A DNA stretch of 64,000 nt, taken from positions 2,656,001-2,720,000 of the forward strand of contig CBDCOH010000002.1 in the NCBI GenBank assembly GCA_965219685.1, written 5' to 3'. The DNA comes from Candidatus Spongiisociaceae bacterium. GTDB lineage: Bacteria > Actinomycetota > Acidimicrobiia > Spongiisociales > Spongiisociaceae. Both the position numbers and the translations under genes were made by a program. The notes under the pieces were generated by a model that was not told the origin of the DNA, searched no databases, and saw nothing but the letters and a program-made list of their open reading frames with translations. Positions 6,544-43,258 of this stretch are shown here, piece by piece. The stretch's first letter is position 1. Each line of letters opens with the position of its first letter.

Positions 6544-6557
6544 TCATGAACACGGAG

Positions 6558-8708: not shown

Positions 8709-8743
8709 TCGGACGGTCTGCTCCCCCGGATACTTCGCCATCG

Positions 8744-8796: not shown

Positions 8797-8856
8797 GCAG
8801 TTTTCTCGGGACAACTGCAATCCTCCGGGCAGTCGGGAGCGGATAGACTGGGTTCC

Positions 8857-9042: not shown

Positions 9043-9256
9043 ACCTGCCGCGTACCCATCGCGCCAACACAAGGATCCGCGGACGATCCGATTCAACCTT
9101 CAGATTCGGACAGATACCGCGGGCCCGTTGACGATTCTGGAGTTTCGCCTCGTCAGAGCCACCACCATGTCTCCGACCTTGACTTGCCCAACCGTGTCCG
9201 TGAACCGCTCAAGAGAGAAGCGAGCGGCGTCTCTGTGGTCGATACCCGCTCAAAGA

Positions 9257-9938: not shown

Positions 9939-10033
9939 GTCTTACCAAGCTGTTCCACCCCGGAGGGTGGTGTAAGACCCCTTCACGGGCCGTTCGACCG
10001 TTGACCGTGCCTGGTTAGCCACCAGCCACCAGA

Positions 10034-21599: not shown

Positions 21600-21640
21600 G
21601 ACCACCTGCTCGTCGCGTGTCTGGAGGGAGTTCCCCATGG

Positions 21641-22810: not shown

Positions 22811-22949
22811 TCCAGAGTTGTAGACGCCGGTCCCAACGATATCAAGGAATCCGGGGTCCACGATCCGGCGATCCGGCGGCCGGGCGGATCCTGGATTCGT
22901 CATCGCCTGCCCGCGTTCTACGTCACGGTCGGCGAGTACGATCCGGGGG

Positions 22950-24737
22950 GTGGAGTACCAGGCGCTCTACCGCAAGTACCGACCCGGACGCTTCGATGAG
23001 GTCATAGGACAGGACCACGTCACCCACACCCTGGCGAGGGAGATCGTCGAGGGTCGGGTTGCCCACGCCTACCTGTTCGCCGGCCCCCGGGGAACGGGCA
23101 AGACGACCACTGCCCGGCTGGTCGCCAAGTCCCTCAACTGCCCGCATAGGGAGAAGCAGGGAGAGCCCTGCGGGACATGCGCCTCCTGCACGGCCGTAAC
23201 GGGTTCTTACTCGATGGACGTGATGGAGCTCGACGCGGCCTCCCACAACAAGGTCGAAGACGTCCGTGACCTGCGGGCGAGCGTGTCCACGGTCGCCTCG
23301 GTGGGAGGCGCCAAGCGGGTGTTCATCCTCGACGAGGCCCACATGCTCACCAAGTCGGCCAGCAATGCCCTGCTGAAGACGCTGGAAGAACCCCCCGACC
23401 ACGTTCATTTCGTGCTGGCCACCACGGAGCCCTACCGCCTGCTCGACACCATACGTTCCCGTAGCCAGCGATTCGACTTCCATCTGATCCCCACCGAGCT
23501 GATCGCCGAACACCTCAGACGGATATCCGGGGCGGAGGGGTACCGCGCATCGCCGGAGGCATTGCTGGAGGTGGCCAGGAGGGCGGCCGGATCTGTACGA
23601 GACGCGCTGAGCCTGCTCGAACAGGTGGCGGCCCTCGACGGATCGGTCACCCGCGAGGGCATCCGGGACGCGCTCGGCGTTGCCGGCCCGGACGCCATAC
23701 CGACCCTCGTGAAGGCGGTCATCGAGTCGGACGCCCGCCTCGCCCTCGAGTTGATCGCAGGCCTGGCCGCGAGCGGAGTGGACCTGCGACGGTTCGCCGG
23801 CGACGCCATGGGGTTCTTCCGCGGTGTCTTCCTGACCATGTACACCCCCAACGTTCAGGGCATCAGCGACGAGCCGGCCGAGGTATTGGAAGGATGGCGG
23901 GAAGCTTCGCGGAGGCTCCCGAGTTCCACCGCCATGCGCGCCATCGATCTCCTGGGCGAAGCCCTGGTAAGGCTGCGGGAGGGCCGCGAGGAGCGGATGA
24001 TGCTGGAGTTGGCGGTCTTGAAGCTGGTCCGCCCCGAACTGGATACCGACAGCGAAGCCCTCCTGAATCGTATCGAGAGGCTGGAGCGCCGTCTCTCCCG
24101 GGCTCAGCCTGCTCCGGAGCCGCCGTCTGCAGAGGCCCCGCCACCGCGGGCTGACGAGACCCTGCCGCGCCCTACACCTCGGGAGATGCCGACCCCGGAA
24201 CCGCCCGTTCAGGAGGTTGTGGCCGAAGAGCCGGCAATCGACGGCCCGCCCGGGGCCGGGGACCGGACGGCCGCGGCGGGCGCCGCGCCCCTACCTGACG
24301 CATCCGGTGGCACGACCGATGCGTCTCCGACCGCGGCCGAACTCGACCGTATCTGGCCGCAACTCGTAGCCGGCGTCAGGGATGAGATGGGCGTCGTCCG
24401 GGGGGCACTGTTCCGCGACGCCATACCCGGTGGCGTGGAGGGCTCCACGCTCGTGTTCACGATACCGGCCGGGCTCGACTTCCATCTCCAGAAGCTGTCA
24501 TCCGACCGCGGCCTCCACAGCTACCTGGCCGACCTCGCGGAGAGATTGCTGGGCAAGCGCGTGGAAGTGTCCTTCCGGGCAGCCGAGGACCGGACGCGCG
24601 GACCGGTACCGATCGCGGACCTGCCGATGGAGCCCTTGCCCGACAAGGAGTCCCTGCCGGAGGCGCCTCCCACCAGTACGGACGCGCTCTCGCTCCTCGA
24701 GAAGACCTTCGGGGCGACGGTGGTCGAAGAGGATTGA
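22950..24737 (+). CDS. dnaX: DNA polymerase III subunit gamma/tau
   Basis: YQALYRKYRP, GPRGTGKTT, Zn-binding Cys, ILDEAHML, LLKTLEEPP. Confidence 0.96.
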   Translation: MEYQALYRKYRPGRFDEVIGQDHVTHTLAREIVEGRVAHAYLFAGPRGTGKTTTARLVAKSLNCPHREKQGEPCGTCASCTAVTGSYSMDVMELDAASHNKVEDVRDLRASVSTVASVGGAKRVFILDEAHMLTKSASNALLKTLEEPPDHVHFVLATTEPYRLLDTIRSRSQRFDFHLIPTELIAEHLRRISGAEGYRASPEALLEVARRAAGSVRDALSLLEQVAALDGSVTREGIRDALGVAGPDAIPTLVKAVIESDARLALELIAGLAASGVDLRRFAGDAMGFFRGVFLTMYTPNVQGISDEPAEVLEGWREASRRLPSSTAMRAIDLLGEALVRLREGREERMMLELAVLKLVRPELDTDSEALLNRIERLERRLSRAQPAPEPPSAEAPPPRADETLPRPTPREMPTPEPPVQEVVAEEPAIDGPPGAGDRTAAAGAAPLPDASGGTTDASPTAAELDRIWPQLVAGVRDEMGVVRGALFRDAIPGGVEGSTLVFTIPAGLDFHLQKLSSDRGLHSYLADLAERLLGKRVEVSFRAAEDRTRGPVPIADLPMEPLPDKESLPEAPPTSTDALSLLEKTFGATVVEED

Positions 24738-24809
24738 GGGCCCGGTAGAAGGCCGCCCGGCACGGGTAATCACGGCCCTGACCCGACCCGCAGCTACGCT
24801 GGAAACCTG

Positions 24810-25403
24810 ATGTTCGAGAGGCCCGTACAGCGACTGATCGACGAGTTGACCAGGCTACCGGGAGTTGGCCGCAAATCGGCCCAGCGTCTTGCCTTCCACC
24901 TGCTCAACGTCGACGAAGCCGACGCACACTGCCTGGCGCAGGCAATCGTCGACCTGCGCGAGCAAACCACGTTCTGTTCCCGCTGCTACAACGTGACGTC
25001 CGGTGTCGAATGCTCCATCTGCGCGGATCCTCGCCGCGACCCTGCCGTGATATGCGTGGTCGAGCGGCCCCAGGACATCGCGGTGATAGAGCGGACCCGC
25101 GAGTTCAAGGGCCGGTACCACGTCCTGGGCGGGGCGCTGTCCCCCATCGACGGGGTCGGACCGGCCCAGCTACGGATAGAGGAACTCCGCAGCCGCATCC
25201 CGGCGGAGTCGATCACCGAGATGATCATCGCAACCAACCCGACCATCGAGGGAGACACCACCGCCATGTACCTGGCCCGCCGCTTCAAACCGCTCGGCGT
25301 AACGGTCACGCGTCCCGCCAGCGGCCTCCCGGTGGGGGGTGACATGGACTACGCGGACGAGATCACCCTCGGGCGGGCCCTCACGGGCCGGCGGGAACTC
25401 TGA
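24810..25403 (+). CDS. recR: Recombination mediator RecR
   Basis: [18 protein letters not shown]4 Zn finger, Toprim [12 protein letters not shown]. Confidence 0.96.
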
Positions 25404-25477
25404 GTGGTGAGTGGTGAATGGTGAATGGTGAATGGTGAATGGTGAATGGTGAATGGTGAATGGTGAATGGTGAATGG
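25401..25477 (+). repeat. Heptamer array (TGAGTGG)x2 (TGAATGG)x9 beginning with the recR stop codon
   Basis: 11 units read directly. Confidence 0.97.
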
Positions 25478-25507
25478 TACATTATACGTATAACTCTTCT
25501 CAACGGC

Positions 25508-25541
25508 TATCAGCACCAGCCACTAGCCACCAGCCACCAAG
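25508..25541 (+). repeat. Degenerate C/A-rich heptamer array (CACCAGC/CACTAGC) ending just before the dgt RBS
   Basis: tatcagc-accagcc-actagcc-accagcc-accaag. Confidence 0.8.
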
Positions 25542-25547
25542 GACACA

Positions 25548-26531
25548 ATGGACCAGTTGAAGCGAGTGGACCGGCGCGAGCGGGAGGGACGGGAGCGATG
25601 GGACCTCTCTCCGGCTGCCACCAGATCCGCCGGCTCCAAGGGGCGGGAAGAAGCGGAGGAACCGGATCCCCTTCGGACTGCTTTCGAACGGGACCGGGAC
25701 CGGATAGTGCATTGCAACGCCATCCGCCGCTTGGCGCGCAAGACCCAGGTGTTCGTCGACCCGGAGAACGACCACTTCGTGACCCGGCTGACCCACACGC
25801 TCCAGGTGGCCCAGATCGGGCGGGCGATGGCGGTCGCGCTCGGTCTCAACGAAGCGCTTACCGAGGCGATCTGCCTCGGACACGACATAGGTCATGCACC
25901 CTTCGGCCACACGGGGGAGGACGCCCTGGCGGAGATCGTCGAGGGCGGCTGGGTCCACTCTGACCACTCCGTCCGGATTCTGTCGGTCCTCGAGCCCTTG
26001 AACCTCACCTGGGAGGTGCGCGACGGCATCCGGGCCCATCCCTGGCGGGTCGAGCCCCCTCCCGCGACCCCGGAGGGATACCTGTGCCGGTTCGCGGACC
26101 GCATCGCGTACCTGAGCCACGACCTGATCGATGCCATGCGGGCGGACATCATCCGGTACCGGGATCTACCCTTCCGCTCCCAAGCGCTGCTCGGAGACCG
26201 GCACGGTCGCTGGGTCACCGCCATGGTCCACGCGGTGGTCGAACGGTCGGCGACAACCGGCACCGTTTCCATGGATCCGGACGTCGCTGAGGCCATGGCG
26301 GAGTTACGAGCGTTCATGTTCGAGCGGGTCTACCTTCGCTCGGAGGGCAGTGCGCACCGCCACCGCGCCATCAAGATCGTGCAGGACCTGGTGCGTCACT
26401 ACGAGACCCACCCGTCCGAGGTCCCCTCCACGGTTCCGGACGGACGCACCGCCCTGGAGCAGGCGGTCGACTACGTGGCGGGCATGACCGACCGCTTCGC
26501 CCTCCGCGCTCACTCGGAACGGTGCGGGTAG
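25548..26531 (+). CDS. dgt: dGTP triphosphohydrolase-like HD protein
   Basis: RTAFERDRDRI, KTQVF, TRLTHTL, GHDIGHAPFGHTGE, DYVAGMTDRFA. Confidence 0.9.
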   Translation: MDQLKRVDRREREGRERWDLSPAATRSAGSKGREEAEEPDPLRTAFERDRDRIVHCNAIRRLARKTQVFVDPENDHFVTRLTHTLQVAQIGRAMAVALGLNEALTEAICLGHDIGHAPFGHTGEDALAEIVEGGWVHSDHSVRILSVLEPLNLTWEVRDGIRAHPWRVEPPPATPEGYLCRFADRIAYLSHDLIDAMRADIIRYRDLPFRSQALLGDRHGRWVTAMVHAVVERSATTGTVSMDPDVAEAMAELRAFMFERVYLRSEGSAHRHRAIKIVQDLVRHYETHPSEVPSTVPDGRTALEQAVDYVAGMTDRFALRAHSERCG

Positions 26532-26646
26532 GGACCATTGGGCCTAACAGCGCCACCGATACCGATGAGTACCCTCCGCCCTTGACCATGAACCGGACAC
26601 GCGGCCCTGCTCCGGTGCGCCGATCCGACCCGCAGGAGGAGAGAGA

Positions 26647-27774
26647 ATGCTTGTCCCGGTGATCCTGGCCGGAGGCTCGGGAACCCGCCTGTGGCCGGCG
26701 TCGCGTCGCGAGTATCCCAAGCCCCTCCTCCGGCTGACCGGCAAGCGATCTCTGCTTCAGGAAACGGTACTCCGGGCGGCGGCGATCCCGGGTGCCAGCC
26801 CCCCGGTGATCGTGTGCGGCACTGCCCACTACCCGCCCGTCACCGACCAACTCGACGAGATCGGACGGAGCATCCACACAGCCATCCTGGAACCGGCCGG
26901 TCGCAGCACAGCGCCGGCCGCGGCCGCGGCCGCGCTGGTCGCCGACGAGGACGACATCCTGTTCGTGATGCCGGCCGACCACTTGATCGACGGTATGGAC
27001 GCCTTCCTCGGAGCCGTGCGCACGGCAGGCGACGCCGCCGGGGCCGGGTGGCTGGTGACCTTCGGGGTAACCCCCGACCGGCCCGAGACGGGCTACGGCT
27101 ACATCGAACGGGGAGAGGCGATCGAGAAACACCCCCGCGCGTTCCGGATCGCCTCCTTCCGTGAGAAACCTGACCTGGCCACGGCCCGGCGCTACATCGA
27201 CGGCGGCCGTCACTGGTGGAACAGCGGGATGTTCGTGTTCCGGGCCGGCGCCTACCTCGACGAGCTCCGGAACTCCAACCCCGACATGGTCCGCCTCGCA
27301 GATGCTTCGCTGGCGGGTTCCACGGAGCACTTGGGCTCGTTGGTCGAGCAGGGTGTGTACCGGTTGGACCCGGCTACGTTCGCTTCCTGCCCGGCCGACT
27401 CGATCGATCGTGCCGTCATGGAGCGGACCCGGCGTGGCGCCGTGGTCCCTCTCAGGGCCGACTGGAACGATGTGGGTTCATGGGCGGCTCTCTGGGACAT
27501 CGCAACCAAGGACGGATCCGGCAATGCGGTAACGGGTCCCGGCCACTTGCAGAACGTGTCGTCCAGCTACGTAGCGGCCGGTGACCGTCCCGTGGTGGTG
27601 ATCGGTCTCGAGAACGTGGTCGTGGTCGACGCCGGCGAGGCGGTACTGGTGGCCGGCCTGGACCACGCCCAGCAGGTCAAGCCCCCGCCGGAAGCGAACC
27701 AGACTGGTCCAGTCGGCCCTGTGTCGGCTGAACTCCGGCCGAGCCGAGACCCTCAACCGGATGGTCCGGCTTGA
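26647..27774 (+). CDS. manC: Mannose-1-phosphate guanylyltransferase (no C-terminal isomerase cupin)
   Basis: VILAGGSGTRLWPASR, EPAGRSTA, PETGYGYI, FREKPD, WNSGMF, WNDVGSW. Confidence 0.92.
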   Translation: MLVPVILAGGSGTRLWPASRREYPKPLLRLTGKRSLLQETVLRAAAIPGASPPVIVCGTAHYPPVTDQLDEIGRSIHTAILEPAGRSTAPAAAAAALVADEDDILFVMPADHLIDGMDAFLGAVRTAGDAAGAGWLVTFGVTPDRPETGYGYIERGEAIEKHPRAFRIASFREKPDLATARRYIDGGRHWWNSGMFVFRAGAYLDELRNSNPDMVRLADASLAGSTEHLGSLVEQGVYRLDPATFASCPADSIDRAVMERTRRGAVVPLRADWNDVGSWAALWDIATKDGSGNAVTGPGHLQNVSSSYVAAGDRPVVVIGLENVVVVDAGEAVLVAGLDHAQQVKPPPEANQTGPVGPVSAELRPSRDPQPDGPA

Positions 27775-27800
27775 TGATTAGTTCCTAGTCGGCAACCGGT

Positions 27801-31811
<4,011 letters not shown>

Positions 31812-31815
31812 TATT

Positions 31816-34800
31816 TCAACCTTCTTCCCTGCGCTCGGGGCGCGACAGATCTATTCCGAGTGACTCCGCCGTGCGATAGAGGTCCTCGTCCAGATCCCTG
31901 AACTGGATCTCCTCACCCGCCGACAGCAACTCGACGTTGAGACACAGACTCTGCATCTCCTTTATGAGCACTTTGAAAGACTCCGGGACACCGGGCTCGG
32001 GAATGTTGTCCCCCTTGACAATGGACTCGTATACCTTCACCCGGCCCAGCACGTCATCGGACTTGATGGTCAACAACTCCTGCAGCGCATAGGCGGCTCC
32101 GTAGGCTTCCAAGGCCCATACCTCCATCTCTCCGAACCGCTGTCCCCCGAACTGAGCCTTCCCTCCCAGGGGCTGCTGGGTGATCATCGAATACGGACCC
32201 GTCGAACGGGCGTGGAGCTTGTCGTCGACCAGGTGAACCAGCTTGAGTATGTAGAGGTAGCCGACGGTTATGGGTGTATCGAAGGCCAGTCCGGTGCGGC
32301 CGTCGTACAGGATCGCCTTCCCGTCGTTGTCTATGAGACGGTCTCCGTCCCGGTTGGGCAGGCTGTTGGCGATGACCTTGGCGATCTCGTCCTCGCGGGC
32401 TCCGTCGAATACCGGGGTCGCGACGCGGGACCAGGGAGGCATCCCGGCGGAGATCGGGCCGTCCGCGTTGAAACGCCTCCAACCCTGGGCGGCGGCCCAC
32501 CCAAGGTGGGTCTCGAGTACCTGTCCCAGATTCATGCGGGAGGGAACACCCAGAGGCGAGAGGACGATGTCGACGGGTGTTCCGTCGGGGAGGAAGGGCA
32601 TGTCCTCCTCGGGCAGGATCTTCGCGATCACACCCTTGTTCCCGTGACGGCCGGCCAGCTTGTCCCCCTCGGAGATCTTGCGCTGGCTGGCCACGTACAC
32701 CCGCACCAGGTCGTTCACGCCGGGGGGCAGGTCGTCGTATCCCTCGGAGCGCCGGAACACCTTCACGTCGATCACCTTGCCGGTCTCTCCATGAGGAACC
32801 TTGAGGGAGGAATCACGCACCTCGCGTGCCTTCTCCCCGAAGATGGCCCGCAGAAGCCGCTCCTCGGGGGTCATCTCCGTCTCCCCCTTGGGGGTCACCT
32901 TCCCGACCAGGTAGTCGCCAGGGCCGACGTCGGCTCCAACGCGGATGATCCCCTCGTCGTCCAGGTCCCTGAGGACCTCTTCGGCGACGTTCGGGATGTC
33001 GCGGGTGATCTCCTCCGCCCCCAGCTTGGTGTCACGTGCATCGATCTCGTGCTCCTCGATATGGATCGATGTCAGCACGTCCTGTTTGACCAGGCGCTCG
33101 CTCAGCACGATGGCATCCTCGAAGTTATGACCCTTCCAGGGCATGAAGGCCGCCAGCAGGTTCTTGCCGAGCGCCAGTTCGCCGGCGTCGGTGGATGGCC
33201 CGTCGGCGATGACGGTGCCATTGGCGACCTGTTCTCCGATCACCACCAGCGGCTTCTGGTTGATCGACGTACCCTGATTGGAACGTTCGAACTTCCGCAA
33301 TGGGAAGCGGTGGGGCTCCCCGGTGGCGGACTCGACCACGACGATCTCGTCTCCCGTGACCGAGGTCACCACGCCGTCGATCCCGCAGATGATCAGATCA
33401 CCGGAGTCCTGGGCGGCTCTGGCCTCGACCCCGGTACCTACAAGGGGGGCTTCGGTCCGGAGTAGCGGGACGGCCTGGCGTTGCATGTTGGAGCCCATCA
33501 GCGCCCGGTTGGCGTCGTCGTGCTCCAGGAACGGTATGAGCGAGGTGGCGACCGAGACGATCTGCTTGGGGGATACGTCCATGTAGTCCACATCCTGGGG
33601 GCGGACCCGGTCGATGTCACCTCCGGCCCTGCGAACGAGCACCCGATCCCGGACGAAGGAGCCGTCGGGATTGAGAGCCGCGTTGGCTTGGGCTATAACG
33701 TACCGCTCCTCCTCGGATGCGGTCAGGTAGGTGATCGAATTGGTCACGCTGCCGTCCTCGACCTTCCGGTACGGAGTCTCGATGAAGCCAAAACGGTTGA
33801 CCCGGGCGTAGCTTGCGAGCGAGCCGATCAAGCCGATGTTCGGTCCCTCGGGAGTTTCGATCGGGCACATACGACCGTAGTGGGAAGGGTGGACGTCCCT
33901 CACCTCGAAGCCCGCCCGCTCCCGCGAGACCCCTCCCGGCCCGAGGGCTGACAACCGGCGCCGGTGGGTGAGGCCGGCCAGGGGGTTGGGCTGGTCCATG
34001 AACTGGCTGAGCTGACTGGACCCGAAGAACTCCTTGATCGAACCGACCACCGGCCGGATGTTGATGAGACTCTGCGGTGTGATGGAGTCGGGGTCCTGGG
34101 TGGTCATCCGCTCCCGGACCTGCCTCTCCATGCGGTTGAGCCCTACCCTGATCTGGTTCTGGACCAACTCGCCGACGGTGCGGACCCGCCGGTTCCCGAA
34201 ATGGTCCGTGTCGTCGGTCCGCACCGGTACGTCGTGACCGAGGGCGGTGGTCATGAGTTCCTTGCCCTCGTAAAGGTGGACCATGTACCGGATCGTGTCG
34301 ATCAGGTCGTCGTCGGCGAGCAATCCGTTGTCGGAGGCATGACCGTCGGGATTCTGGAACTTCTGGTTCACCTTGTAGCGCCCGACGTGGGTGAGGTCAT
34401 AGCGCTTCGGGTTCCTGAAAACGGACTGGATGAGACCGCGGGCCGACTCCACCGTGGTCGGCTCGCCAGGACGTTGCTTCCGGTACAGATCGAGCAGGGC
34501 CTCCTCCGGATCCTTGACCGGATCCCGCTCGAGGGTGTTGCGGATAACCTCGGCCCCGTCGAAAATCTCGATTATCTGCTCGTCCGTGTCCGCGACGCCG
34601 AGCGCCCGGATGAAGGCGGTCACGTACTGGCGGCGCTTGCGGTCCACCCTGACCCCGGCGGTATCCCGCTTGTCGATGTCGAACTGCATCCAAGCACCTT
34701 GCCCCGGGATGATCTTGGCGCCGAAGATGTCCTTGTCGGAGGTCTTGTCGATGGACTGATCGAAGTAGACACCGGGCGAGCGCACCAACTGGCTCACCAC

Positions 34801-35184
34801 CACCCGCTCCGTCCCGTTGATGATGAAGGTCCCGTTGCGGGTCATCATCGGAAAGTCGCCCAGGAACACTCTCTGCTCCTTGATCTCCCCGGTACCGCGG
34901 TTCACGAACCGGGCGATCACATGGAGAGGCTTGGAGTAACTGGTATCCCGCTCCTTGGCCTCCTCAACCGTCATCAGGGGCTCGCCGAAGTAGTGATCGC
35001 TCAAGTCCAAGGCAAGCGATCCGGAGAAGTCCTCGATAGGCGACAGCCGCTCGAAGATACGGCTCAGACCCTCCTCCAGAAACCACGAGAAGGACTCCTT
35101 CTGGACCGCGATCAGATCAGGCAACTCCAGCACTTCGGGGATCTTGGAGAACGACAGGCGCTCGTCGGCGTGAACTATGACCAA
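31816..35184 (-). CDS. rpoB: RNA polymerase beta subunit
   Basis: [54 protein letters not shown]. Confidence 0.98.
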
Positions 35185-35481
35185 AGCTTCCTCCTAGAGA
35201 ACTACCCGACCGGACCCGACCCGGTCTCTACGATGCACCCGGTCCCGAGTCCTTTCGCACTCCGACCGCCCTTGGCACAGACTGTTTCGCTCCGTCTTCG
35301 TCGGGGCTGACCCACCCCTGCTTCGGCGGCAACCGCCCTGGCAAGTGGAACGGCTTCACACACGGCAAAAGGCAGGATAGCGCGCGGCTAACCTGCCCTA
35401 CCGGGCTGAAGTGCGATTCAACTGGTATCGACGGACTCCCGTTGCATTTTCCTCCGGGCAAAACCGTCCACTTCTCGTCTG

Positions 35482-35510
35482 ATGCTAGAGGCGATGGCGA
35501 AGCCAGTCAA
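35482..35510 (-). promoter_or_regulatory. Putative housekeeping-sigma promoter upstream of rpoB
   Basis: TTGACT-17 nt-TAGCAT on the minus strand. Confidence 0.55.
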
Positions 35511-35574
35511 GCACTGATCAGGAGCCAGTGGTCGGCATCGCCAAGCGTACGAATGATACAAATCGTCACGATCC

Positions 35575-35615
35575 ACTAGCAACTAGCAACTAGCAACTAG
35601 CAACTAGCAACTAGC
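35575..35615 (-). repeat. Heptamer array (TAGTTGC) x about 6 beginning with the rplL stop codon
   Basis: ACTAGCA repeats on the + strand. Confidence 0.95.
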
Positions 35616-35994
35616 GTATCTCTACGCTGCCTCCGACGGCCTCGATCTTGCCCTTGGCGGCCTCGGCCTCCTCCTTGGAGACCGCCTCGAGCACGGTGTT
35701 GGGGATGCCGTCCACGACCGCCTTGGCCTCCTTGAGGCCGAGACGGGTGAGAGCGCGGACCTCCTTGATCACCTGGATCTTCTTGTCTCCCGAGGAGGTG
35801 AGCACGACGTCGAACTCCACCTGTTCCTCTTCGGGCTCGGCGGACGCGTCCTCGCCGGGCGCCATGGCAACCGCCATCGAAGCCGCCGCGGTCACATCGA
35901 AGTGACTCTCGAAGGCGTCCAAGAACTCTTTGAGCTCGAGGACCGTCATCTCCTCGAAAACGCTCAACAAGTCTGCGGTACTCATCGTGGCCAT
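35611..35994 (-). CDS. rplL: 50S ribosomal protein L7/L12
   Basis: EFDVVL...[20 protein letters not shown]. Confidence 0.96.
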
Positions 35995-36027
35995 GGTTCT
36001 CCTCCTGCGTGGGTGGTTTCCAGTGGT

Positions 36028-36582
36028 TTAGGGGGAATCGGACCCGGATACGGATCCGCCCTCCCCTGCTTCCTTCTTCTCGAGTAGTTGAGAGAACACG
36101 GAGGCGGCTTCGCGGCTGAGCGAACCCAGAAGGAACGCCGCCTTGGAAAGCGGTCCCTTCACTGCCCCGGCGATCTTCCCGAGTAGTGCCTCGCGGCCCT
36201 CGATCCTGGCGATGACCTCGATCTGGTGGGAGGCGATCACCTGGTCCTTCAGCAGCCCGGCCTTGACCACCAGGCCCTCGTTGTCCTTCCCGAAGTCCAC
36301 CAGAGCCTTGGCGGCGGGAACCGGATCATCGTCTACAAAAGCAACGGCGGTAGGGCCGGTCAACCATTCGTCGAGACCCTCATGACCGAGTTCGTGCAGT
36401 GCCCTGCGCGTGAGGGTCATCTTCAACACCTTGTAACGGGCGCCGGCCTCCCCGAGGGCGCGACGGAGTTCTTGCTGGCGAGCGACCGTCAGGCCGCGGT
36501 ACTCGGTGAGGAACGACGCCGAGGAACCGGCGAAGTAGTCCTTGATCTCTGCAACCGCCTTAACCTTCTCCGGTCGTGGCAT
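36028..36582 (-). CDS. rplJ: 50S ribosomal protein L10
   Basis: MPRPEKVKAV, TEYRGLTV, LTGPTAVAF. Confidence 0.95.
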   Translation of the reverse strand: MPRPEKVKAVAEIKDYFAGSSASFLTEYRGLTVARQQELRRALGEAGARYKVLKMTLTRRALHELGHEGLDEWLTGPTAVAFVDDDPVPAAKALVDFGKDNEGLVVKAGLLKDQVIASHQIEVIARIEGREALLGKIAGAVKGPLSKAAFLLGSLSREAASVFSQLLEKKEAGEGGSVSGSDSP

Positions 36583-36589
36583 GAATCCT

Positions 36590-36770
36590 CCGCAGTCTTG
36601 GTGGCAGCGCCTGTGGTGGTATCAAGGCGAGCACCCTCCGATGAGCGAGACAGACGAGGGTACCCGAGAGACATCTCGAATCAACCTCGGCAGGCGGATC
36701 CGTGTGGATCCCTTAAACCTTCAGAGCGGGAGTCGTCCCGTACCGCGGGTTACCGGCTGTCTGCGGCCCA
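36590..36770 (-). ncRNA. L10 leader (ribosomal protein autoregulatory element)
   Basis: CCGCAGACAGCCGGT...TTTAA-hairpin-CCTGCCGAGG upstream of rplJ. Confidence 0.7.
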
Positions 36771-36830
36771 TGGTTCCGGAACCTCTCCGGAGCCGTGCCG
36801 CAGCATAGACGGACGATGCGCGAAGGCCAA

Positions 36831-36909
36831 GTTGGTGGGTGGTGAATGGTGAGTGGTGAGTGGTGAATGGTGAGTGGTGAAGGCTCTACACACCACCAAT
36901 CACCAACTA
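36831..36909. repeat. Paired heptamer arrays (TGGTGAG/TGGTGAA, then CACCAAT-type) at the rplA stop
   Basis: Read directly; the two arrays are roughly complementary. Confidence 0.9.
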
Positions 36910-37617
36910 CCGACGCACTAGGCGATCAAGCCGGGAAGCGTCGACTTTCACTCCCGGACCCATGGTCGACGAGAGGGCGAGGTTCCTCAGATAGGTTCCC
37001 TTGGCAGCGGGCGGTTTTACCCTGACAATCTCGCCCACCAGAGCGGAGAGATTCTCGTGGAGCATGGCATCGTCGAACGAGACTTTCCCGATCGGGGCTG
37101 CGATGTTGCCGTAGCGGTCGTTCCGGTACTCGATCTTCCCGCCCTTGAACTCCCGCACGGTCCGGGCCACATCGCGAGTAATGGTGCCGGCCTTCGGGTT
37201 GGGCATGAGACCGCGGGGACCCAGCAGCCGCCCCAGGCGGCCCACCCTCGGCATCATGTCCGGGGTGGCGATAGCCACGTCGAAGGCGATCTCGCCCCCA
37301 GATGCGAGCATGTCGGCCAGATCCTGCCCGCCCACGACTTCGGCCCCGGCCTCCTCGGCCTCGAATTGCTTGTCCCCCCCTGCGAACACCGCAACGCGGA
37401 CCGAGCGGCCCGTTCCGTGCGGGAGGACGACCGTTCCCCTGACCAACTGGTCTGCCCTGCGAGGGTCGATTCCCAGCTTCATCACTGCCTCTACCGTCTC
37501 GTCGAAGCGGGCCGACGCCATGGTCCGGACCATCCGTATGGCTTCCGAGGGCGGGTAGGACAGGTACTTGTCGAACGTCGCGGCCATCTGGTTGTACCGC
37601 TTGCCTCTGCGGGCCAT
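36907..37617 (-). CDS. rplA: 50S ribosomal protein L1
   Basis: [43 protein letters not shown]; AAGGAGG RBS. Confidence 0.97.
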
Positions 37618-37844
37618 GGTTCCTCCTTGTGGTGTTAGTGGTCTGCCTGCAAAACAACCTGTCGTGCCCTGCCAGCCAGGGACGCCCCCGGCGGCGCATG
37701 CCACGACGCGATTTCACAGACAAAACCACTGGCGCCCCTGTCGGCCGAATGTCTTGGCATGCAACCGACGGACCACCGGCGAGCCGCCATGCAGCGGCTC
37801 TCCCAGCTATCTGTAACTTGTAGTGTCGGTCGAGCCCGACTGAC

Positions 37845-38273
37845 TCAGTCTGCGATGACGATCCCCATCGACCGGGCGGTACCGGCCACGATCTTCATCG
37901 CTCCCTCGACATCCGTCGTATTGAGATCGGGGAGCTTGGTCTCGGCGATCTGGCGAAGCTGATCCCGGGAAAGCGTGGCGACCTTCTCCCGGTTGGGCTC
38001 CGGAGAGCCCTTCTCGATCCTGGCCGCCTGCCGCAGCAGAACCGCGGCGGGCGGTGTCTTCGTCACGAACGTGAAGGACCGGTCGGCGTATATCGTAACC
38101 TCAGCCGGAACGATGGTCCCCAACTGGGTCTTGGTCGCCTCGTTGTAGGACCTGACGAACTCCATGATGTTTATCCCGTACTGGCCTAGCGCCGGACCGA
38201 CCGGCGGCGCGGGGCTGGCCTCCCCTGCCGGAATCTGGAGTTTCAGGATGGCTGTAACCCGTTTTCTACCCAT
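37845..38273 (-). CDS. rplK: 50S ribosomal protein L11
   Basis: [27 protein letters not shown]. Confidence 0.97.
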
Positions 38274-38349
38274 GATGGCCGATGTCCTTCGATCTTCCTC
38301 TTCAGTGTTCGGTGTGGAGCATCCCGGTCAAAAGGCCCGAGCCGCCCGC

Positions 38350-39198
38350 TCATTGCTTCTGGATCTCCTCGAATCCCAACTCCATCGGAGTGTCCCGGCC
38401 GAAGATCTCGACGAGCACGGTGACCTTCTGCCGATCGACGTTGATATCCTCAACCACTCCGTTGAAGTCGGCGAACGGACCCGATGAAACCCGCACCGTC
38501 TCCCCGATCTCCCATGCCGGCCGGAAACGAGGGGGCTTCTTGGCCGCCTCCTTCTTGAGACCGAGGAAGCGCTCGACCTCTCGCTTCGACAGGGAGGTCG
38601 GCTTGTTTCCTGTCCCCATCCCGACGAACGAGGTGACGCCCGGCGTGTTGCGAACTGCATGCCAGGAGTCGTCGTCCAGGTACATCCGGATGAGTAGGTA
38701 ACCGGGGAACATCCGCTTCTCAACCTCGACCTTGCGTCCCCCTTTGATCTCCACCACCTTCTCGGTCGGTATCACGACCTCGAAGATCCGGTCCTCCATG
38801 TGCATGGACGATGTACGAGTGGCCAGTCTCGCCTTGACCTTCTTCTCGTAGCCCGAATAAGCGTGGATCACGTACCAGGAACCCGGCTTGTCATACGGGC
38901 TGATCGGCTCCTCCTCGACCAGCTCCGCGACCTCGGTCGTGGCGGGTGGCTCGACGACTGGCTTGGGCTTGGCCGGCCGGGGCTTGGAGACCGTGCGGGG
39001 CTTGACAGCAGGTGCGGCGGTGGGATCCGGTTCAGGCGCTTGCGGCACCTCAGGCGGCACTTCCGGCAAGGAGCCATCGCTACCGAACCCTGCCGACAGC
39101 AGGGCCGCCCCCAGGGAGCCTACCGCTTCCTCCCCAGCCTCCCCTTGGGGCTCAGCGTCGAGGTCCTCGTCGACCGGAGGATGGGTACGGTCCGCCAC
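38350..39198 (-). CDS. nusG: Transcription factor NusG with long acidic/Pro-rich N-terminal extension
   Basis: WYVIHAYSGYEKKVK, FPGYLL, VRNTPGVTSFVG, KOW GPFADF. Confidence 0.95.
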   Translation of the reverse strand: MADRTHPPVDEDLDAEPQGEAGEEAVGSLGAALLSAGFGSDGSLPEVPPEVPQAPEPDPTAAPAVKPRTVSKPRPAKPKPVVEPPATTEVAELVEEEPISPYDKPGSWYVIHAYSGYEKKVKARLATRTSSMHMEDRIFEVVIPTEKVVEIKGGRKVEVEKRMFPGYLLIRMYLDDDSWHAVRNTPGVTSFVGMGTGNKPTSLSKREVERFLGLKKEAAKKPPRFRPAWEIGETVRVSSGPFADFNGVVEDINVDRQKVTVLVEIFGRDTPMELGFEEIQKQ

Positions 39199-39818: not shown

Positions 39819-40220
39819 TCAGCTCGCCTGGGATCTGAGCCGGCGGCCCGCCACGACGACCAGTCCGATAGCGGCGACCGACGCGGCCGAGGCGATGGCG
39901 GCCACCAATGGACGGCGCCTGTCAGCCGGCATATCGGCGGGATCGTCGTCCGTGACCTGGATCGTGGGTTGGTCGAGAACCGACGTCATGTCGTAGGGAA
40001 GGGGCTCGAACTCCTGCCGTAGAGACGCTAGGCCCCTCATCACCTGGCGCTGGCGAACTGTCGCGGCCTGGCAGAGCAGGCACTCACTTCGGTGCCGCTC
40101 GAGCGGCTGGGGCAAGGTGATCGTTCCCGACTCCACTCCATACAGCACCAAGCGGGTCATCCTGCAAGCCGCTCCCCGAGGCAACCGGTCCGTGGCCGTC
40201 TTAGCAAGAGGTTGGCTCAC
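39819..40220 (-). CDS. Putative ZAS-type membrane anti-sigma factor
   Basis: HxxxCxxC (HRSECLLC) plus C-terminal TM; overlaps the ECF sigma stop. Confidence 0.7.
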   Translation of the reverse strand: MSQPLAKTATDRLPRGAACRMTRLVLYGVESGTITLPQPLERHRSECLLCQAATVRQRQVMRGLASLRQEFEPLPYDMTSVLDQPTIQVTDDDPADMPADRRRPLVAAIASAASVAAIGLVVVAGRRLRSQAS

Positions 40221-40780
40221 ACCACCCCCCTCAACATATCCCGCAGGCGGAGATGAGCCCGGTGAAGTCGTACCTTGGAAGCTGCCACAGAGATGGACAT
40301 CGAGTCAGCGATCTCGCGGTGCGACCACCCGTAGACGTCCTTGAGTATGACGATGGCCCTCTGGTGGTGGGGTAAGCGGCTCAGCGCAGCCTTCAGGTTG
40401 GCTCTCAACTCAGCCCGCTCGCCGGCAACCTCGGGATTCCCGCTGGCATCCGCATGGGGCTGGCGGATCATCTGGTCTAGGTCGTAGGTGGCCTGGCGCG
40501 CCGCCCGGCCCTTGAGTGTCCAGGCAACGTTAGCCGTGATCCGATAGATCCAGGTGCTGAAGCTGGAATCCCCCCGGAACCGGCCGATGGCTCTCCATGC
40601 CCGCACCAGCGCCTCCTGGGTGACATCTGCGGCCAGGGTTCGATCCCCGACCAAGCGAACCGCCAATGTGTAAACCTCGTGTTGGTGAAGCCGAGCGAGT
40701 TCTCCGAATGCGGCCCGATCACCCTTTCTTGACCGTTCCACCAACTCGCCTATATCGGCTTCGACCCGTCGACCTGACAT
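40217..40780 (-). CDS. ECF RNA polymerase sigma factor
   Basis: GDRAAFGEL, DVTQEA..RAW, FRGDSSFSTWIYRI, G.SHREIA...SK.RLHRA. Confidence 0.92.
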   Translation of the reverse strand: MSGRRVEADIGELVERSRKGDRAAFGELARLHQHEVYTLAVRLVGDRTLAADVTQEALVRAWRAIGRFRGDSSFSTWIYRITANVAWTLKGRAARQATYDLDQMIRQPHADASGNPEVAGERAELRANLKAALSRLPHHQRAIVILKDVYGWSHREIADSMSISVAASKVRLHRAHLRLRDMLRGVV

Positions 40781-40800: not shown

Positions 40801-41670
40801 CTAGCCGGTCCTGGCCGTGATGGTAGCAACAACATGTGTCCCGGCGTCTGAGACGACGGCCGTCTTGATAGCGGCTCGGCCGCCGGAACAGTCATCGACG
40901 GCTGCCGTCACCTCTGCCGCCGTATCCGGATAGAGGGGGCGCCGGAAACGAAAACGACCACTGACCAACGGATCCAAGCGATCGATCACCGCCGCGGCGG
41001 GCTGGGTGGCCCACGCAGCCATCAGCAGGCCGTGACAAATGACACCCCCTACTCCGGAGGCAACGCCCCGACCGTGATCCCAGTGGACCGGGTTGAAGTC
41101 CTCGCTGGCAGCCGCATAGCGCACGAGGTCGGAGCGCGAAGCCGACTTGGGAAGCCCGGGCAGGGCAGTCCCGGGAGTCAACGTCCCCCCTCCGGCCGGT
41201 CGAGCATTCGCCCGACGAGCCTCCGGCTCGGGTTCCTCCCGCTCCTCCGACCCGCCACCAGGCGGCACGCCGGCCGACATGAGGAAGAGCGACCTCGATG
41301 ACAGCACGCCCTGGTCCCGGTCATCCTTCACATCCACCACGAAGGTGACGAACGCTGTGTCACCGCGGCGGCGCAGGCGGTCCACCCTGCCCTCGATCGA
41401 AAGCGAAGAGCCTACCCGCCAGGGCGCCAACCAGGAGAAGGTCTGCTCGCCATGGATGAGCAGGCGCGCATGTGTCGACACGTCGGGGTCGGCGAAGAAC
41501 GCAGGCGCCGCCTTGAAGAGGACAGCCCCCGCGAACGAGGGTGGTGCATGGGTGTCCCACCGTCGCGGATCATCGCCAGTGGCTTCCACGTATGCGGCAA
41601 CTTGCGCAGCACTGACCCGGAATGCGAAGGGTCCATAGGAGCGACCTGAGAGGGCCCCGAGATCACTCAA
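40801..41670 (-). CDS. Double-hotdog MaoC dehydratase (HadA/HadB-like fusion)
   Basis: N-terminal APPSFA..LIHGEQTF, C-terminal YAAASEDFNPVHWD...ICHGLL. Confidence 0.85.
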   Translation of the reverse strand: MSDLGALSGRSYGPFAFRVSAAQVAAYVEATGDDPRRWDTHAPPSFAGAVLFKAAPAFFADPDVSTHARLLIHGEQTFSWLAPWRVGSSLSIEGRVDRLRRRGDTAFVTFVVDVKDDRDQGVLSSRSLFLMSAGVPPGGGSEEREEPEPEARRANARPAGGGTLTPGTALPGLPKSASRSDLVRYAAASEDFNPVHWDHGRGVASGVGGVICHGLLMAAWATQPAAAVIDRLDPLVSGRFRFRRPLYPDTAAEVTAAVDDCSGGRAAIKTAVVSDAGTHVVATITARTG

Positions 41671-41680: not shown

Positions 41681-41863
41681 CTACCGTATCTCGCGATGGA
41701 GGGTGTGACGTCGTAGGAATGGATTGTACTTCTTGAGTTCCAGCCTGCTCCGCGTGTTATTACGGTTCTTGGTGGTTATGTAACGGGACGGCGGCTTACC
41801 TTCGCCCCGTGCCTCTGTGCACTCAAGTGTTATCTTGATTCGGCTGCCCTTTTTCTTGGCCAT
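41681..41863 (-). CDS. rpmG: 50S ribosomal protein L33, Zn-free type
   Basis: ITLECTE...RYITTKNR.N...[19 protein letters not shown]. Confidence 0.93.
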
Positions 41864-41915
41864 GGCACCCTTCCCACTCCTTCAGTATCCAGTTCCGAGG
41901 ACTCCCAGCCTCCCG

Positions 41916-43103
41916 TTATTTTGTGATTTTGGTGACAGTGCCCGCACCCACAGTACGACCACCCTCACGAATCGCAAACCGCAACCCCTCATCCATAGCA
42001 ATAGCCGAACCCAACTCCACCGACATACGAGTGTTATCACCCGGCATCACCATCTCCACCCCATCAGGCAACGCAACCCGACCAGTCACATCCGTCGTAC
42101 GGAAATAAAACTGCGGCTGATACCCAGCAAAAAACGGATTATGCCGACCACCCTCATCCTTAGTCAACACATACACCTGAGCCTCGAACCCAGTATGCGG
42201 CGTGATCGACCCCGGAGCAGCCAACACCTGACCCCGCTCCACCTCCGTCTTGCGCACCCCCCTCAACAACACCCCCACATTGTCACCAGCCCGACCCTCA
42301 TCCAACAACTTACGGAACATCTCCACCCCCGTCGCCACCGTACGACGAGTCTCCCGAATCCCCACCACCTCAACCGGATCACCCACATGAACCACCCCAG
42401 CCTCAACCTTCCCAGTCACCACCGTCCCCCGACCAGTAATCGAAAACACATCCTCGATCGGCATCAAAAACGGCCGATCCACCGGACGGTCCGGAACCGG
42501 AACATACGAATCCACCGCATCCATCAACTCCAGCACACCCCCCGCAGCAGCCTCATCCCCCTCCAAAGCCGCCAACGCCGACACCGGCACCACCGGCACG
42601 TCATCCCCCGGAAACCCATAATCATCCAACAACTCCCGAACCTCCAACTCCACCAACTCCAACAACTCCTCATCATCCACCAAATCAACCTTATTCAACG
42701 CCACAACAATACAAGGCACCCCCACCTGACGCGCCAACAACACATGCTCCCGCGTCTGAGGCATCGGACCATCAGCCGCCGACACCACCAACACCGCACC
42801 ATCCACCTGAGCAGCACCCGTAATCATATTCTTGATATAATCCGCATGCCCCGGCATATCCACATGCGCATAATGACGACCCACAGTCTCATACTCCACA
42901 TGCGCAATAGCAATCGTAATACCCCGCTCACGCTCCTCCGGCGCCTTATCAATCTCATCAAACACCGTAAACGTATTCCCAGCCACCCGCTCAGACAACA
43001 CCCGAGTAATCGCAGCAGTCAACGTCGTCTTACCATGATCAATATGACCCATAGTCCCAACATTCACATGCGGCTTAACCCGCTCAAACCTCGCCTTAGC
43101 CAT
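41916..43103 (-). CDS. tuf: Elongation factor Tu
   Basis: [46 protein letters not shown]; start MAKARFER. Confidence 0.98.
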
Positions 43104-43184
43104 GGTGTCCGTTTCCCCTCTTGGTGTCCTGTGTGTCCATACATTGCATCGGTCGGCAATCATCACCGACAGCCGACCGTTTCG

Positions 43185-43258
43185 TAGCGGCGGGCAGACT
43201 TGAACTGCCGACCTCTCGATTATGAGTCGAGCGCTCTTACCGACTGAGCTACGCCGCC
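43185..43258 (-). tRNA. tRNA-Met (CAT), elongator type
   Basis: GGCGGCGTAGCTCAG...CTCATAA loop...GTTCAAG; CCA not encoded. Confidence 0.9.

Follow-up and report, generated by a model that had tools for sequence, protein, structure and literature searches.

The closest described system is that of the duplicated elongation factor genes: gene-bounded conversion is the published model for tufA and tufB of Salmonella (PMC5485169), and concerted evolution of tuf, Actinobacteria included, has been reported (PMC6053082); the parts of these two papers that deal with tuf, codons and GC content describe no compositional or strand bias for tuf conversion. In GC-biased gene conversion, G and C are preferred whichever strand they are on and GC3 goes up, and the general strand skew of replication leaves the leading strand with more G than C and more T than A. 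According to the available portions of the papers concerned, the repair protein NucS/EndoMS cleaves or repairs G/T, G/G and T/T mismatches only (PMC6159521; PMC11551767), corrects an annealed strand toward the resident strand over a few bases (PMC11551767) and suppresses homeologous recombination (PMC8228993). In those same portions, this specificity and strand direction come from work on C. glutamicum and M. smegmatis, i.e., on other species than the present one, and the accounts concern replication errors and recombination barriers. Literature searches brought up no report of a compositional drive in repeats in the available parts of the texts, those on NucS included.

The tuf gene considered here lies in a window of 64,000 nucleotides (the whole stretch of DNA that was analysed) from a Candidatus Spongiisociaceae bacterium, a member of the Acidimicrobiia called G000 below; the other G-numbered genomes are relatives, also Acidimicrobiia. 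The window genes used for comparing the fraction of codons ending in G or T (GT3) are plain long open reading frames assigned with Pfam. The features, in window coordinates except for the second copy, are as follows.

41916-43103, minus strand: tuf (EF-Tu) coding sequence, copy 1 of 2; 395 codons plus TAA, GT3 0.954 (Pfam)
41940-43103, minus strand: keto (G/T-only) domain of tuf; codons 1-387 or 388, GT3 0.97
41916-41939, minus strand: short reversed (A/C) 3' tail and stop of tuf; GGC ACT GTC ACC AAA ATC ACA AAA TAA
43184-43490, minus strand: tRNA-Met(CAT), tRNA-Thr(GGT) and tRNA-Tyr(GTA), upstream of tuf in a tufB-type context; not common to copy 2
41681-41863, minus strand: rpmG (L33), downstream of tuf, unbiased; not common to copy 2 (Pfam)
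27801-39198, minus strand: comparison genes rpoC, rpoB, rplL, rplJ, rplA, rplK and nusG, GT3 0.47-0.56 (Pfam)
41817-43187, plus strand: antisense open frame of 456 aa that spans tuf; no Pfam family
3517139-3518326 of contig C2: tuf copy 2, after fusA and before rpsJ; 1188/1188 nucleotides identical to copy 1

The tuf product, about 395 aa long, carries the three domains of EF-Tu (G domain, PF00009 GTP_EFTU, 6e-63; D2, PF03144, 3e-16; D3, PF03143, 3e-38). A preliminary description, made from the letters of the window, had called its third-position usage extreme, and counting bears this out: 377 of the 395 codons end in G or T (G 226, T 151, C 15, A 3), which places both copies 9.6 SD above the genome-wide GT3 of 0.469 +/- 0.051 (3359 ORFs of at least 300 aa), the next ORF standing at 0.749. 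Its hand count of the first 108 codons was exact, ATC at codon 90 being the sole one to end in A or C, and leucine is indeed written TTG (26 TTG, 1 CTG). The bias begins at codon 2, the 5' UTR of copy 1 being unbiased, and has its change point at codon 387 (head GT3 0.972), about eight codons before the end as first described; position 41940, given there as the start of the feature, is where the bias stops, whereas the gene itself runs on to 41916. The skew is tied to codon position, and the protein stays intact. By arithmetic from the per-position base counts, the tuf mRNA is 41.5% G, 28% U, 15.7% A and 14.8% C; judging by composition and by the lack of a Pfam family, the 456-aa antisense frame is probably no gene but a side effect of an antisense strand poor in T and G.

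Around tuf, codon usage is ordinary. The location is of the tufB type, as had been recognised from the start, with the three tRNA genes upstream, rpmG downstream and, further on, nusG-rplKAJL-rpoBC (Pfam). GT3 is 0.49 in rpoC, 0.47 in rpoB, 0.47 in rplL, 0.48 in rplJ, 0.47 in rplA, 0.56 in rplK and 0.55 in nusG, while the GC3 of tuf is 0.61 vs. 0.84-0.87 in the neighbouring rpoBC. Among pairs of codons ending in C or T, eight neighbouring genes have NNC 629 times and NNT 111 times, vs. 11 and 73 in tuf. The tRNA set is an ordinary one (50 genes, with G34 tRNAs for NNY codons and Arg-ACG as the sole A34 tRNA); with preferences opposite to those of its neighbours and such a tRNA set, tuf does not follow translational codon selection, which is what had been claimed. 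Nor is the bias shared by other highly expressed single-copy genes, a possibility that the preliminary description had raised against itself: rpoB, rpoC and the genes for ribosomal proteins are unremarkable, and fusA, directly upstream of tuf copy 2, is unbiased.

The second tuf, whose existence had been proposed, is identical to the first over a stretch that opens 5 nt ahead of the ATG and closes 1 nt beyond the stop, in unrelated flanks. As with tufA and tufB, the pair of G000 occupies str-operon and tRNA-tuf contexts, its identity is confined to the coding sequence, and the arrangement is kept order-wide; unlike that system, near-complete keto/amino sorting accompanies conversion here (proteobacterial tuf genes that were sampled have GT3 of 0.31-0.74). 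Where the two loci could be compared, in 19 relatives, the tuf copies differ at 0-8 nt over the coding sequence in every case, and 18 of the 19 have GT3 of 0.68-0.98. Near-identical copies are also present in G087, G069 and G100 (4, 3 and 23 differences, GT3 0.85-0.89). Different contexts and near-identity limited to the coding sequence, together with 76-97% protein identity between species, mark these as concerted duplicates. The sharp 3' edge of the bias had been taken for the end of homology. That it is not, since identity covers the unbiased tail in G000, through the last eight codons, and spans the whole coding sequence in 19/19 two-copy relatives regardless of how far the bias extends.

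Bias occurs where two copies stay near-identical and fades once the second copy is lost, broken or diverged. Tuf is single-copy and unbiased in G112 (3 contigs, GT3 0.51) and G119 (9 contigs, 0.47), vs. 0.84-0.95 in two-copy members of the same family. The tuf pair of G054 has diverged at 158/1188 positions and has GT3 of 0.48 and 0.45, its congeners G038 and G059 being biased, and a diverged pair in G084 is likewise unbiased (0.51 and 0.48). In G129, which has nucS, the second copy is broken and GT3 still stands at 0.79-0.90. G045, G072 and G107 have one tuf match each and are yet biased (0.84-0.90); a second copy has likely been collapsed or left unbinned there. The comparison of single- and double-tuf relatives suggested at the outset therefore comes out with near-identical pairs biased except where nucS has been lost (see below), and with single copies in near-complete assemblies, or diverged ones, unbiased; in tracking ongoing homogenisation across relatives, the bias strongly supports the proposed tie between a strand-biased process and gene conversion. 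The same pattern is found in more than 50 assemblies of relatives, the relatives themselves not being independent of each other, and has been held over an order-level span of time.

What is sorted at synonymous sites is keto (G, T) from amino (A, C), transversions included. A drive from C to T and from A to G had been proposed, which is too narrow: at four-fold sites where the majority of unbiased orthologues have C, 58% of the codon observations in biased genes show G, 33% T and 9% C, so that the split is one of keto vs. amino and not of transitions only. Leucine codons are TTG vs. CTN 1123:202 in biased genes and 72:478 in unbiased ones. Between copies, 35 third-position differences were found, of which 15 are G<->T and 19 keto/amino, seven of these 19 coming from the nucS-less G031. 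The 5' halves of tuf reach GT3 1.00 (L051), and in relatives the bias decays from 5' to 3'. The 3' tail, identical in both copies, holds 7 of the 18 A/C-ending sense codons of tuf within the last eight. It was considered whether the tail is simply normal, unconverted usage, unbiased orthologues being C-ending there too, and this was rejected: over the last 12 codons, A-ending vs. G-ending codons for Lys, Glu and Gln number 40:45 in 49 biased tuf genes (40/85 A-ending) vs. 1:41 in 22 unbiased ones (1/42), so the tail is reversed, i.e., A/C-enriched, and not merely unconverted.

Other repeats of G000 behave in the same manner, which bears out the expectation of skew in other multicopy DNA, with polarity following the replichore; the process had been thought local and confined to the gene, and while the neighbours of tuf are indeed ordinary, repeats across the genome are affected. 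The tandem in-frame units of a Peripla_BP_6 gene show GT3 of 0.74-0.88, with the same gradient from 5' down to 3', where their identity is 95% or more, vs. 0.39-0.61 for units 71-85% identical or single-unit orthologues; the single SBP units of G005 and G003, at 0.89-0.90, are assumed to reflect recent unit loss or assembly collapse. Each repeat is G/T-rich 5' and A/C-rich 3' on each strand: 45 of 47 repeat copies have a positive keto difference between first and second half (mean 0.120), the corresponding values being 0.0003 +/- 0.040 for 5000 segments drawn at random and 0.004 +/- 0.033 for unique ORFs (1856 of them), and in transposase ORFs third-position keto content drops from 0.67 to 0.10.

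Superimposed on this gradient is the dominant polarity, set by replication and not by transcription, the origin lying at 3.44-3.46 Mb: the strand that is the lagging-strand template, which is the coding strand of co-directional genes (both tufs included), turns G/T-rich, and repeat genes that run head-on are rich in A and C. GT3 is 0.95, 0.75, 0.71, 0.69 and 0.61 in co-directional repeat genes and 0.13 (fasciclin x2), 0.31 (SBP x2), 0.46 and 0.48 in head-on ones, this head-on evidence consisting of four genes of G000, the last two of them weak, plus G022, where the fasciclin orthologue (units 92-96% identical, on the strand opposite to both tufs) has 0.27-0.32. Unique ORFs differ far less (0.481 co-directional, 0.447 head-on). 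The keto-rich strand is the leading-strand sequence in 9/9 tandem or inverted repeat gene families, in two of them weakly. A high-GT3 ORF at C2:4379996-4380889 was rejected as a gene, the actual gene being the fasciclin x2 gene on the opposite strand (Pfam 1e-64, GT3 0.13), and this moved the reading from "coding strand" to "leading strand". The sign is thus that of the ordinary replication skew, with keto-rich leading-strand sequence, but the effect in repeats is 10 to 30 times larger and confined to them, and it adds a reverse-complement-symmetric internal gradient that is missing from the genome-wide skew. The likeness to GC-biased gene conversion would lie in biased transmission during heteroduplex resolution that moves synonymous composition against codon selection; unlike it, on one strand of tuf T gains over C and G over A, GC3 is lowered (0.61 vs. 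about 0.85), and the direction reverses with strand, replication orientation and place in the repeat.

The preliminary description had pointed to NucS in place of MutSL, and G000 does encode NucS (C2:3185006-3185665, 219 aa, with a clamp-motif-like C-terminus, ...NNLRLF); MutS_V was not found in it, and was found in 2 of 41 relatives. The published specificity, as given in the available parts of the papers above, is exactly the keto/keto class of mismatches. A deletion at the syntenic site, with the same breakpoints, has removed nucS in both G031 and G131, a congener of G129; G031 has two tuf copies 7 nt apart with GT3 of 0.55-0.565, and G131 has tuf at 0.68, vs. the 0.79-0.90 of G129, which keeps nucS and has a broken second copy. 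No NucS match was found in either member of family f5, comprising G028 and G039 alone, both unpublished genomes, where tuf has GT3 of 0.44 and 0.42 and its copy number is read only from contig breaks at the tuf edges. Against these stands G111 (91% complete), in which neither HMM nor protein search found NucS and tuf has GT3 of 0.92; it retains the gene that adjoins nucS in G050, with no nucS beside it, and the absence may reflect recent loss, relocation or an assembly gap. G087 has no NucS match and a biased tuf (0.85), but both nucS neighbours are also missing from its assembly, so it is uninformative on this point. In the order sample a NucS match is missing in 9/121 genomes, about as incompleteness alone predicts (such MAGs can be expected to lack about 5% of genes, which makes most rows without NucS weak); presence of NucS as a clean predictor across the order was therefore dropped, and reliance is placed on the synteny-checked cases only. 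As a whole, the interpretation first offered is partly supported.

The reading proposed here, at a probability of roughly 0.6, is that a strand-asymmetric homogenisation drive acts on all repeats of G000, with tuf as its most extreme instance; we infer NucS, the sole mismatch repair of this lineage, to be the sorter, from the correlation just described and the specificity published for other species. Differences between copies would pass through heteroduplex DNA, where a keto-vs-amino difference would give either a keto/keto mismatch (G/T, G/G, T/T) or an amino/amino one (A/C, A/A, C/C). The former would be seen by NucS and corrected against the discontinuous (incoming, nascent or 3'-tail) strand, and the latter would go unseen and segregate. 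On balance, the polarity of the discontinuous strand would gain A and C, and the continuous strand, at forks the lagging-strand template, G and T. G<->T differences would escape the filter and remain polymorphic, and the drive would outweigh the preference for C-ending codons of other highly expressed genes. The recombination intermediates could be fork-associated annealing or else 3' tails arising at flanking or internal breaks; which of these is assumed decides the sign that is predicted for the polarity, so this geometry is fitted after the fact. The gradient within repeats and the replication polarity reinforce each other at the 5' end of tuf and work in opposite directions at its 3' end, which gives the pure 5' part, the weakening from 5' to 3' seen in relatives and the reversal of the last codons.

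Of the alternatives, recombination-associated mutagenesis without a NucS filter is the one to be taken most seriously, though it seems unlikely. Ectopic pairing and repair synthesis, in repeats only, would leave single-stranded 3' tails or lagging gaps open to deamination (C to T, A to G) or error-prone copying; dependence on repeats, and polarity with replication and repeat ends, would come out alike, and G111 is biased with no NucS found. Deamination alone would, however, have turned former C sites into T, and they are mostly G (58% vs. 33%). Purity of up to GT3 1.00 in 5' halves, in the face of codon selection, calls for a pressure well beyond that of background mutation, while a conversion filter would act on every difference between copies; and G031 still homogenises its copies (7 differences) but is unbiased after deletion of nucS.

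It is quite improbable that the asymmetry comes from transcription, by deamination of an exposed non-template strand (R-loops) in highly transcribed tuf, mostly near the promoter. A G/T-rich coding strand with a 5' maximum fits this in tuf, and also in the co-directional binding-protein genes, whose expression is probably high, but single-copy or diverged tuf genes, equally highly expressed, are unbiased (0.45-0.51), as are fusA, the copy-1 5' UTR, rpoBC and ribosomal protein genes, with the bias starting at codon 2; head-on repeat genes are A/C-rich on the coding strand (GT3 0.13 and 0.31), and transversions dominate at former C sites. Selection on the tuf message or its decoding, where G/U-only wobble positions would lower Watson-Crick self-pairing, avoid a ribonuclease site or suit a special tRNA pool, is hardly credible: the mRNA is C- and A-poor and the pattern is kept over an order-level span, but it is gone in relatives with one copy or diverged copies, it or its mirror image appears in transposases, binding proteins and the fasciclin gene according to replication orientation, and the tRNA set is ordinary, other highly expressed genes favouring NNC (629:111). 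A single-copy tuf from a donor of odd composition, or a mis-polished or mis-assembled repeat, as the preliminary description had allowed for, would account for a GC3 of 0.61 far under that of the neighbours (0.84-0.87) but is most unlikely, given two copies in canonical str and tRNA-tuf-rpmG contexts, proteins 76-97% identical to those of relatives, where over 50 independent assemblies show this pattern too, an effect specific to codon position with the protein intact, and a ranking of identities with no hint of an origin outside the Acidimicrobiia.

More tentatively, and at somewhat under even odds, the homogenisation drive proposed for G000 may extend to NucS-only organisms in general, where, because NucS is blind to A/C, A/A and C/C, any sequence exchanging strands with its own copy would be under a deterministic keto/amino strand drive, able to recode the most highly expressed gene against translational selection and to leave in repeats a record of the direction of replication and of the geometry of recombination (5'-keto, 3'-amino, with a G/T-rich lagging-strand template). 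Biased gene conversion has been known as GC-favouring and strand-blind; the bias described here sorts keto from amino and is polar by strand, replication and position, and the drive is strong enough to maintain, throughout an order of Actinomycetota, EF-Tu genes in which some 95-100% of the codons are non-preferred ones. Should NucS be the sorter, this would be the first trace left in evolution by its narrow range of mismatches, and a readout of the discontinuous strand in natural recombination intermediates; predictors of codon usage, expression level and horizontal transfer would mis-score such genes, and the keto gradient in repeats would be a simple genomic assay of NucS activity in uncultured lineages. 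Repeats would then be natural recorders of heteroduplex polarity in vivo, and the drive may add to the genome-wide strand skew of Actinomycetota and of NucS-bearing archaea. The long-standing question of repair specificity vs. mutation alone in shaping strand composition skews also becomes a testable one.

The tuf gene of the window belongs to a pair carried on the main contig (C2, 4.39 Mb):

window 41916-43103 (C2:2697916-2699103), minus strand, tuf copy 1, in the gene order tRNA-Tyr, tRNA-Thr, tRNA-Met, tuf, rpmG
C2:3517139-3518326, plus strand, tuf copy 2, downstream of fusA and upstream of rpsJ

By codon count its third positions are 226 G, 151 T, 15 C and 3 A, giving a GT3 (fraction of codons ending in G or T) of 0.954; the earliest A/C-ending codon is codon 90 (ATC), Leu is encoded by 26 TTG and one CTG, and of the 18 sense codons ending in A or C, seven sit among the final eight (GGC ACT GTC ACC AAA ATC ACA AAA). 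GT3 is 0.47-0.56 in rpoC, rpoB, rplL, rplJ, rplA, rplK and nusG of the same window, and the C/T-ending pairs run NNC 11 vs NNT 73 in tuf as against 629 vs 111 in the neighbouring genes. The preliminary description of G/T-only third positions is borne out in all details. Among the 3359 ORFs of at least 300 aa in the genome (GT3 0.469 +/- 0.051), the two tuf copies alone exceed 0.75; the tRNA complement is unremarkable. The classical order rpmG-secE-nusG is interrupted here by an insertion: a MaoC-like dehydratase (window 40801-41670) and an ECF sigma factor (40217-40780), both on the minus strand, separate rpmG from the secE/nusG region.

The second copy, whose existence had been predicted, matches the first at 1188/1188 CDS positions, and the shared tract runs from 5 nt upstream of the ATG to 1 nt past the TAA. 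The final eight unbiased codons thus fall within it, and the proposal that the edge of the bias marks the end of homology fails. In 19/19 relatives with both loci compared, the copies differ at 0-8 positions across the full CDS, irrespective of whether the bias spans the entire gene or just half of it. The tail is more than a return to ordinary codon usage; its composition is reversed. Over the last 12 codons of 49 biased tuf genes, Lys/Glu/Gln codons end 40 times in A and 45 in G, as against 77 and 2745 in the remainder of the gene, and 1 and 41 in the last 12 codons of 22 unbiased genes.

The closest named records are Acidimicrobiia. Within the order, 29 relatives have tuf GT3 values of 0.42-0.98, and in an 80-locus sample no value above 0.735 was found outside Acidimicrobiia. 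Mapped along the gene, third positions are polar: every map is pure from codon 2, A/C-ending codons become denser 3'-ward, and the 3' tail is between 6 codons and half a gene in length. The comparison of single- and double-tuf relatives, as had been suggested, ties the bias to near-identical copies. It is lacking in the single-copy genes of two near-complete assemblies, G112 (3 contigs, GT3 0.51) and G119 (9 contigs, 0.47), while two-copy members of their family reach 0.84-0.95; it is also lacking where two copies have diverged, as in G054 (158/1188 differences, 0.48/0.45), whose congeners G038 and G059 are biased, and in G084 (0.51/0.48). Several drafts with one tuf match have GT3 of 0.42-0.49; three others (G045, G072, G107) are biased despite a single match, likely through collapse of a second copy. 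Expression of a single-copy tuf must equal that of a duplicated one; since it is nonetheless unbiased, explanations through mRNA, decoding or transcription are disfavoured. The first 11-48 codons of six otherwise unbiased genes (L019, L020, L025, L087, L154, L156) are G/T-rich at third positions (0.69-0.89), which may be left over from the drive or reflect ordinary codon selection at the 5' end. Second or extra copies with in-frame TGA/TAA stops or frameshifts (G087:C13:172621-173805; G123:C19:54355-55542; genus g14, G129-G132) appear to be decaying pseudogenes retaining their former G/T-rich composition.

The skew extends to other multicopy DNA, as the preliminary description had asked. In 45 of the 47 repeat copies of this genome (identity of 95% or more, length of 700 nt or more; about 20 families by our grouping of the pair list, 19 positive), plus-strand G+T is higher in the first half than in the second, regardless of orientation. 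The mean difference is 0.120, compared with 0.0003 +/- 0.040 in 5000 random segments and 0.004 +/- 0.033 in 1856 unique gene-aligned ORFs, 0.2% of which attain 0.12. Reverse complementation leaves this measure unchanged, so each repeat strand is keto-rich (G, T) at its 5' end and amino-rich (A, C) at its 3' end. Transposase ORFs, classified by Pfam as DDE, IS110, IS3-type and ISL3, begin with a third-position keto content of 0.67 and end at about 0.10.

Genome-wide, keto content drops most steeply (plus strand, 0.61 to 0.16) in an inverted pair, C2:226696-228012 and 230232-231548, 99.7% identical and 2.2 kb apart, which lies on either side of a 132-nt tandem array (228314-229029) and encodes an ORF with weak resemblance to protein kinases. 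Dense transposase/repeat clusters of alternating strong keto skew (C2:3020000-3160000, 215000-240000, 4198000-4232000) probably represent mobile elements that have integrated, or IS graveyards; a phage-type integrase at C2:3159559-3160752 has GT3 0.74. A three-copy family (C2:468587-470058, 510859-512326, 4118651-4120069; 91-92% identical), encoding a 452-aa protein that carries an HNH endonuclease motif, falls to about 8% G/T at third positions in its 3' third. In the 30458-nt contig C1, positions 20186-30458 duplicate 1-10410 at 99.8-100% identity, so that C1 probably represents a circular molecule of about 20.15 kb (59% GC) assembled 1.5 times. In its segment 4821-5738, and in the copy, one strand has G/T at about 91% of third bases over 306 codons; C1 ORFs of 109 and 123 aa gave no clear Pfam family.

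Next below tuf in GT3 are solute-binding proteins with in-frame tandem duplications (units 99.7-100% identical). At least eight genes, most encoding ABC-transporter solute-binding proteins, duplicate a whole domain or mature protein in this way, with units 98.4-100% identical and periods of 438-1194 nt, each a multiple of 3; all lie outside the window:

C2:2360761-2363259
C2:2508210-2510279
C2:3242918-3245374
C2:3866430-3868598
C2:938470-940599
C2:428614-430698
C2:4380014-4381099
C2:1823000-1825231

In relatives, the Peripla_BP_6 gene has GT3 of 0.74-0.88, with the same 5'>3' gradient, where its units are at least 95% identical, and 0.39-0.61 where they are 71-85% identical or in single-unit orthologues; G005 and G003 are exceptions (one unit, 0.89-0.90). 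The double architecture (860-900 aa) recurs in G006, G015, G018, G010, G009, G014, G007 and G004, and is therefore conserved and concertedly evolving, not an assembly error.

Polarity follows the replichore. Cumulative GC skew is lowest at 3.44 Mb and highest at 1.14 Mb, dnaA lies at 3.4645 Mb, and both tuf copies are co-directional with replication. Co-directional repeat genes have higher GT3 (tuf 0.95; four binding-protein doublets 0.75, 0.71, 0.69 and 0.61) and head-on ones lower (doublets of fasciclin 0.13, Peripla_BP_4 0.31, OpuAC 0.46 and a 744-aa protein 0.48), so the keto-rich strand is that of leading-strand sequence, not the coding strand per se; it is the lagging-strand template. 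Unique ORFs show 0.481 and 0.447, respectively. In G022 the fasciclin gene, whose units are 92-96% identical, lies on the other strand from both tufs and has 0.27-0.32, and in five closed relatives both tufs and the binding-protein doublet are co-directional, assuming a terminus opposite dnaA.

A drive of C to T and A to G had been proposed. T does replace C, but transitions alone do not suffice: at four-fold sites with C in unbiased tufs, biased tufs have G 58%, T 33% and C 9% (2087 codon observations). The bias sorts keto from amino bases. Synonymous first positions behave likewise, Leu TTG standing to CTN as 1123 to 202 in biased and 72 to 478 in unbiased tufs, and alignment columns at positions 1 and 2 give 24 amino-to-keto changes and 0 in reverse. 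Of 35 third-position differences between copies, 15 are G<->T and 19 keto/amino, 7 of the latter from one nucS-less genome.

The mismatch-repair enzyme NucS is encoded here (219 aa, C-terminus ...NNLRLF); MutS_V was not found in this genome and was found in 2 of 41 relatives. In published work, G/T, G/G and T/T are its sole substrates in vitro and in vivo (PMC6159521; PMC11551767), it repairs the annealed strand to match the resident one over a few bases (PMC11551767), and it reduces homeologous recombination (PMC8228993). Natural losses give a mixed picture. G031 and G131 of g14 lack nucS at the syntenic site with identical breakpoints (about 260 bp in place of about 720 bp, no detectable remnant); G031 has two tuf copies with 7 differing positions and GT3 0.55-0.565, and G131 has 0.68. 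In nucS-bearing G129 of that genus the broken second copy has 0.79-0.90 and the intact one 0.66. Neither genome of family f5 (G028, G039; both unpublished, and the claim for the family rests on them) gave a NucS match, and their tufs, on contigs that break at the gene edges, have 0.44 and 0.42. Against NucS dependence, G111 (91% complete) has tuf GT3 0.92 with no NucS match, the nucS-neighbour gene of G050 being present without nucS beside it. G087, whose assembly lacks both nucS neighbours, is uninformative.

NucS is the likely sorter in this conversion. A keto/amino difference between copies would yield a keto/keto mismatch for one pairing of strands and an amino/amino mismatch for the other, and NucS would see the former only; if it corrects the discontinuous strand, G/T would be lost from that polarity and gained on the continuous strand. 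In the strand geometry that we infer, the continuous strand would be the lagging-strand template, giving the replication component, and 3' tails entering repeats from the flanks would give the end-to-end gradient; in tuf the two would work together at the 5' end of the gene and against each other at its 3' end. Alternative intermediates, such as internal breaks with recognised heteroduplex aborted, would predict the same sign. Concerted evolution of tuf, Actinobacteria included, and tuf conversion kinetics are already described in PMC6053082 and PMC5485169, respectively; in CC-licensed PMC and bioRxiv main texts, neither conversion with a keto bias or strand polarity nor unusual codon usage in the tuf genes of Acidimicrobiia was found described.

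Apart from the detail of the edge, past which identity continues beyond the TAA, the idea of strand-biased conversion stands, on copy dependence and the repeat-wide skew. We judge the tuf finding real and striking: a repeat-wide, replication-oriented keto/amino conversion drive is present, with the narrow range of mismatches recognised by NucS as its most plausible cause and tuf as its most conspicuous target.
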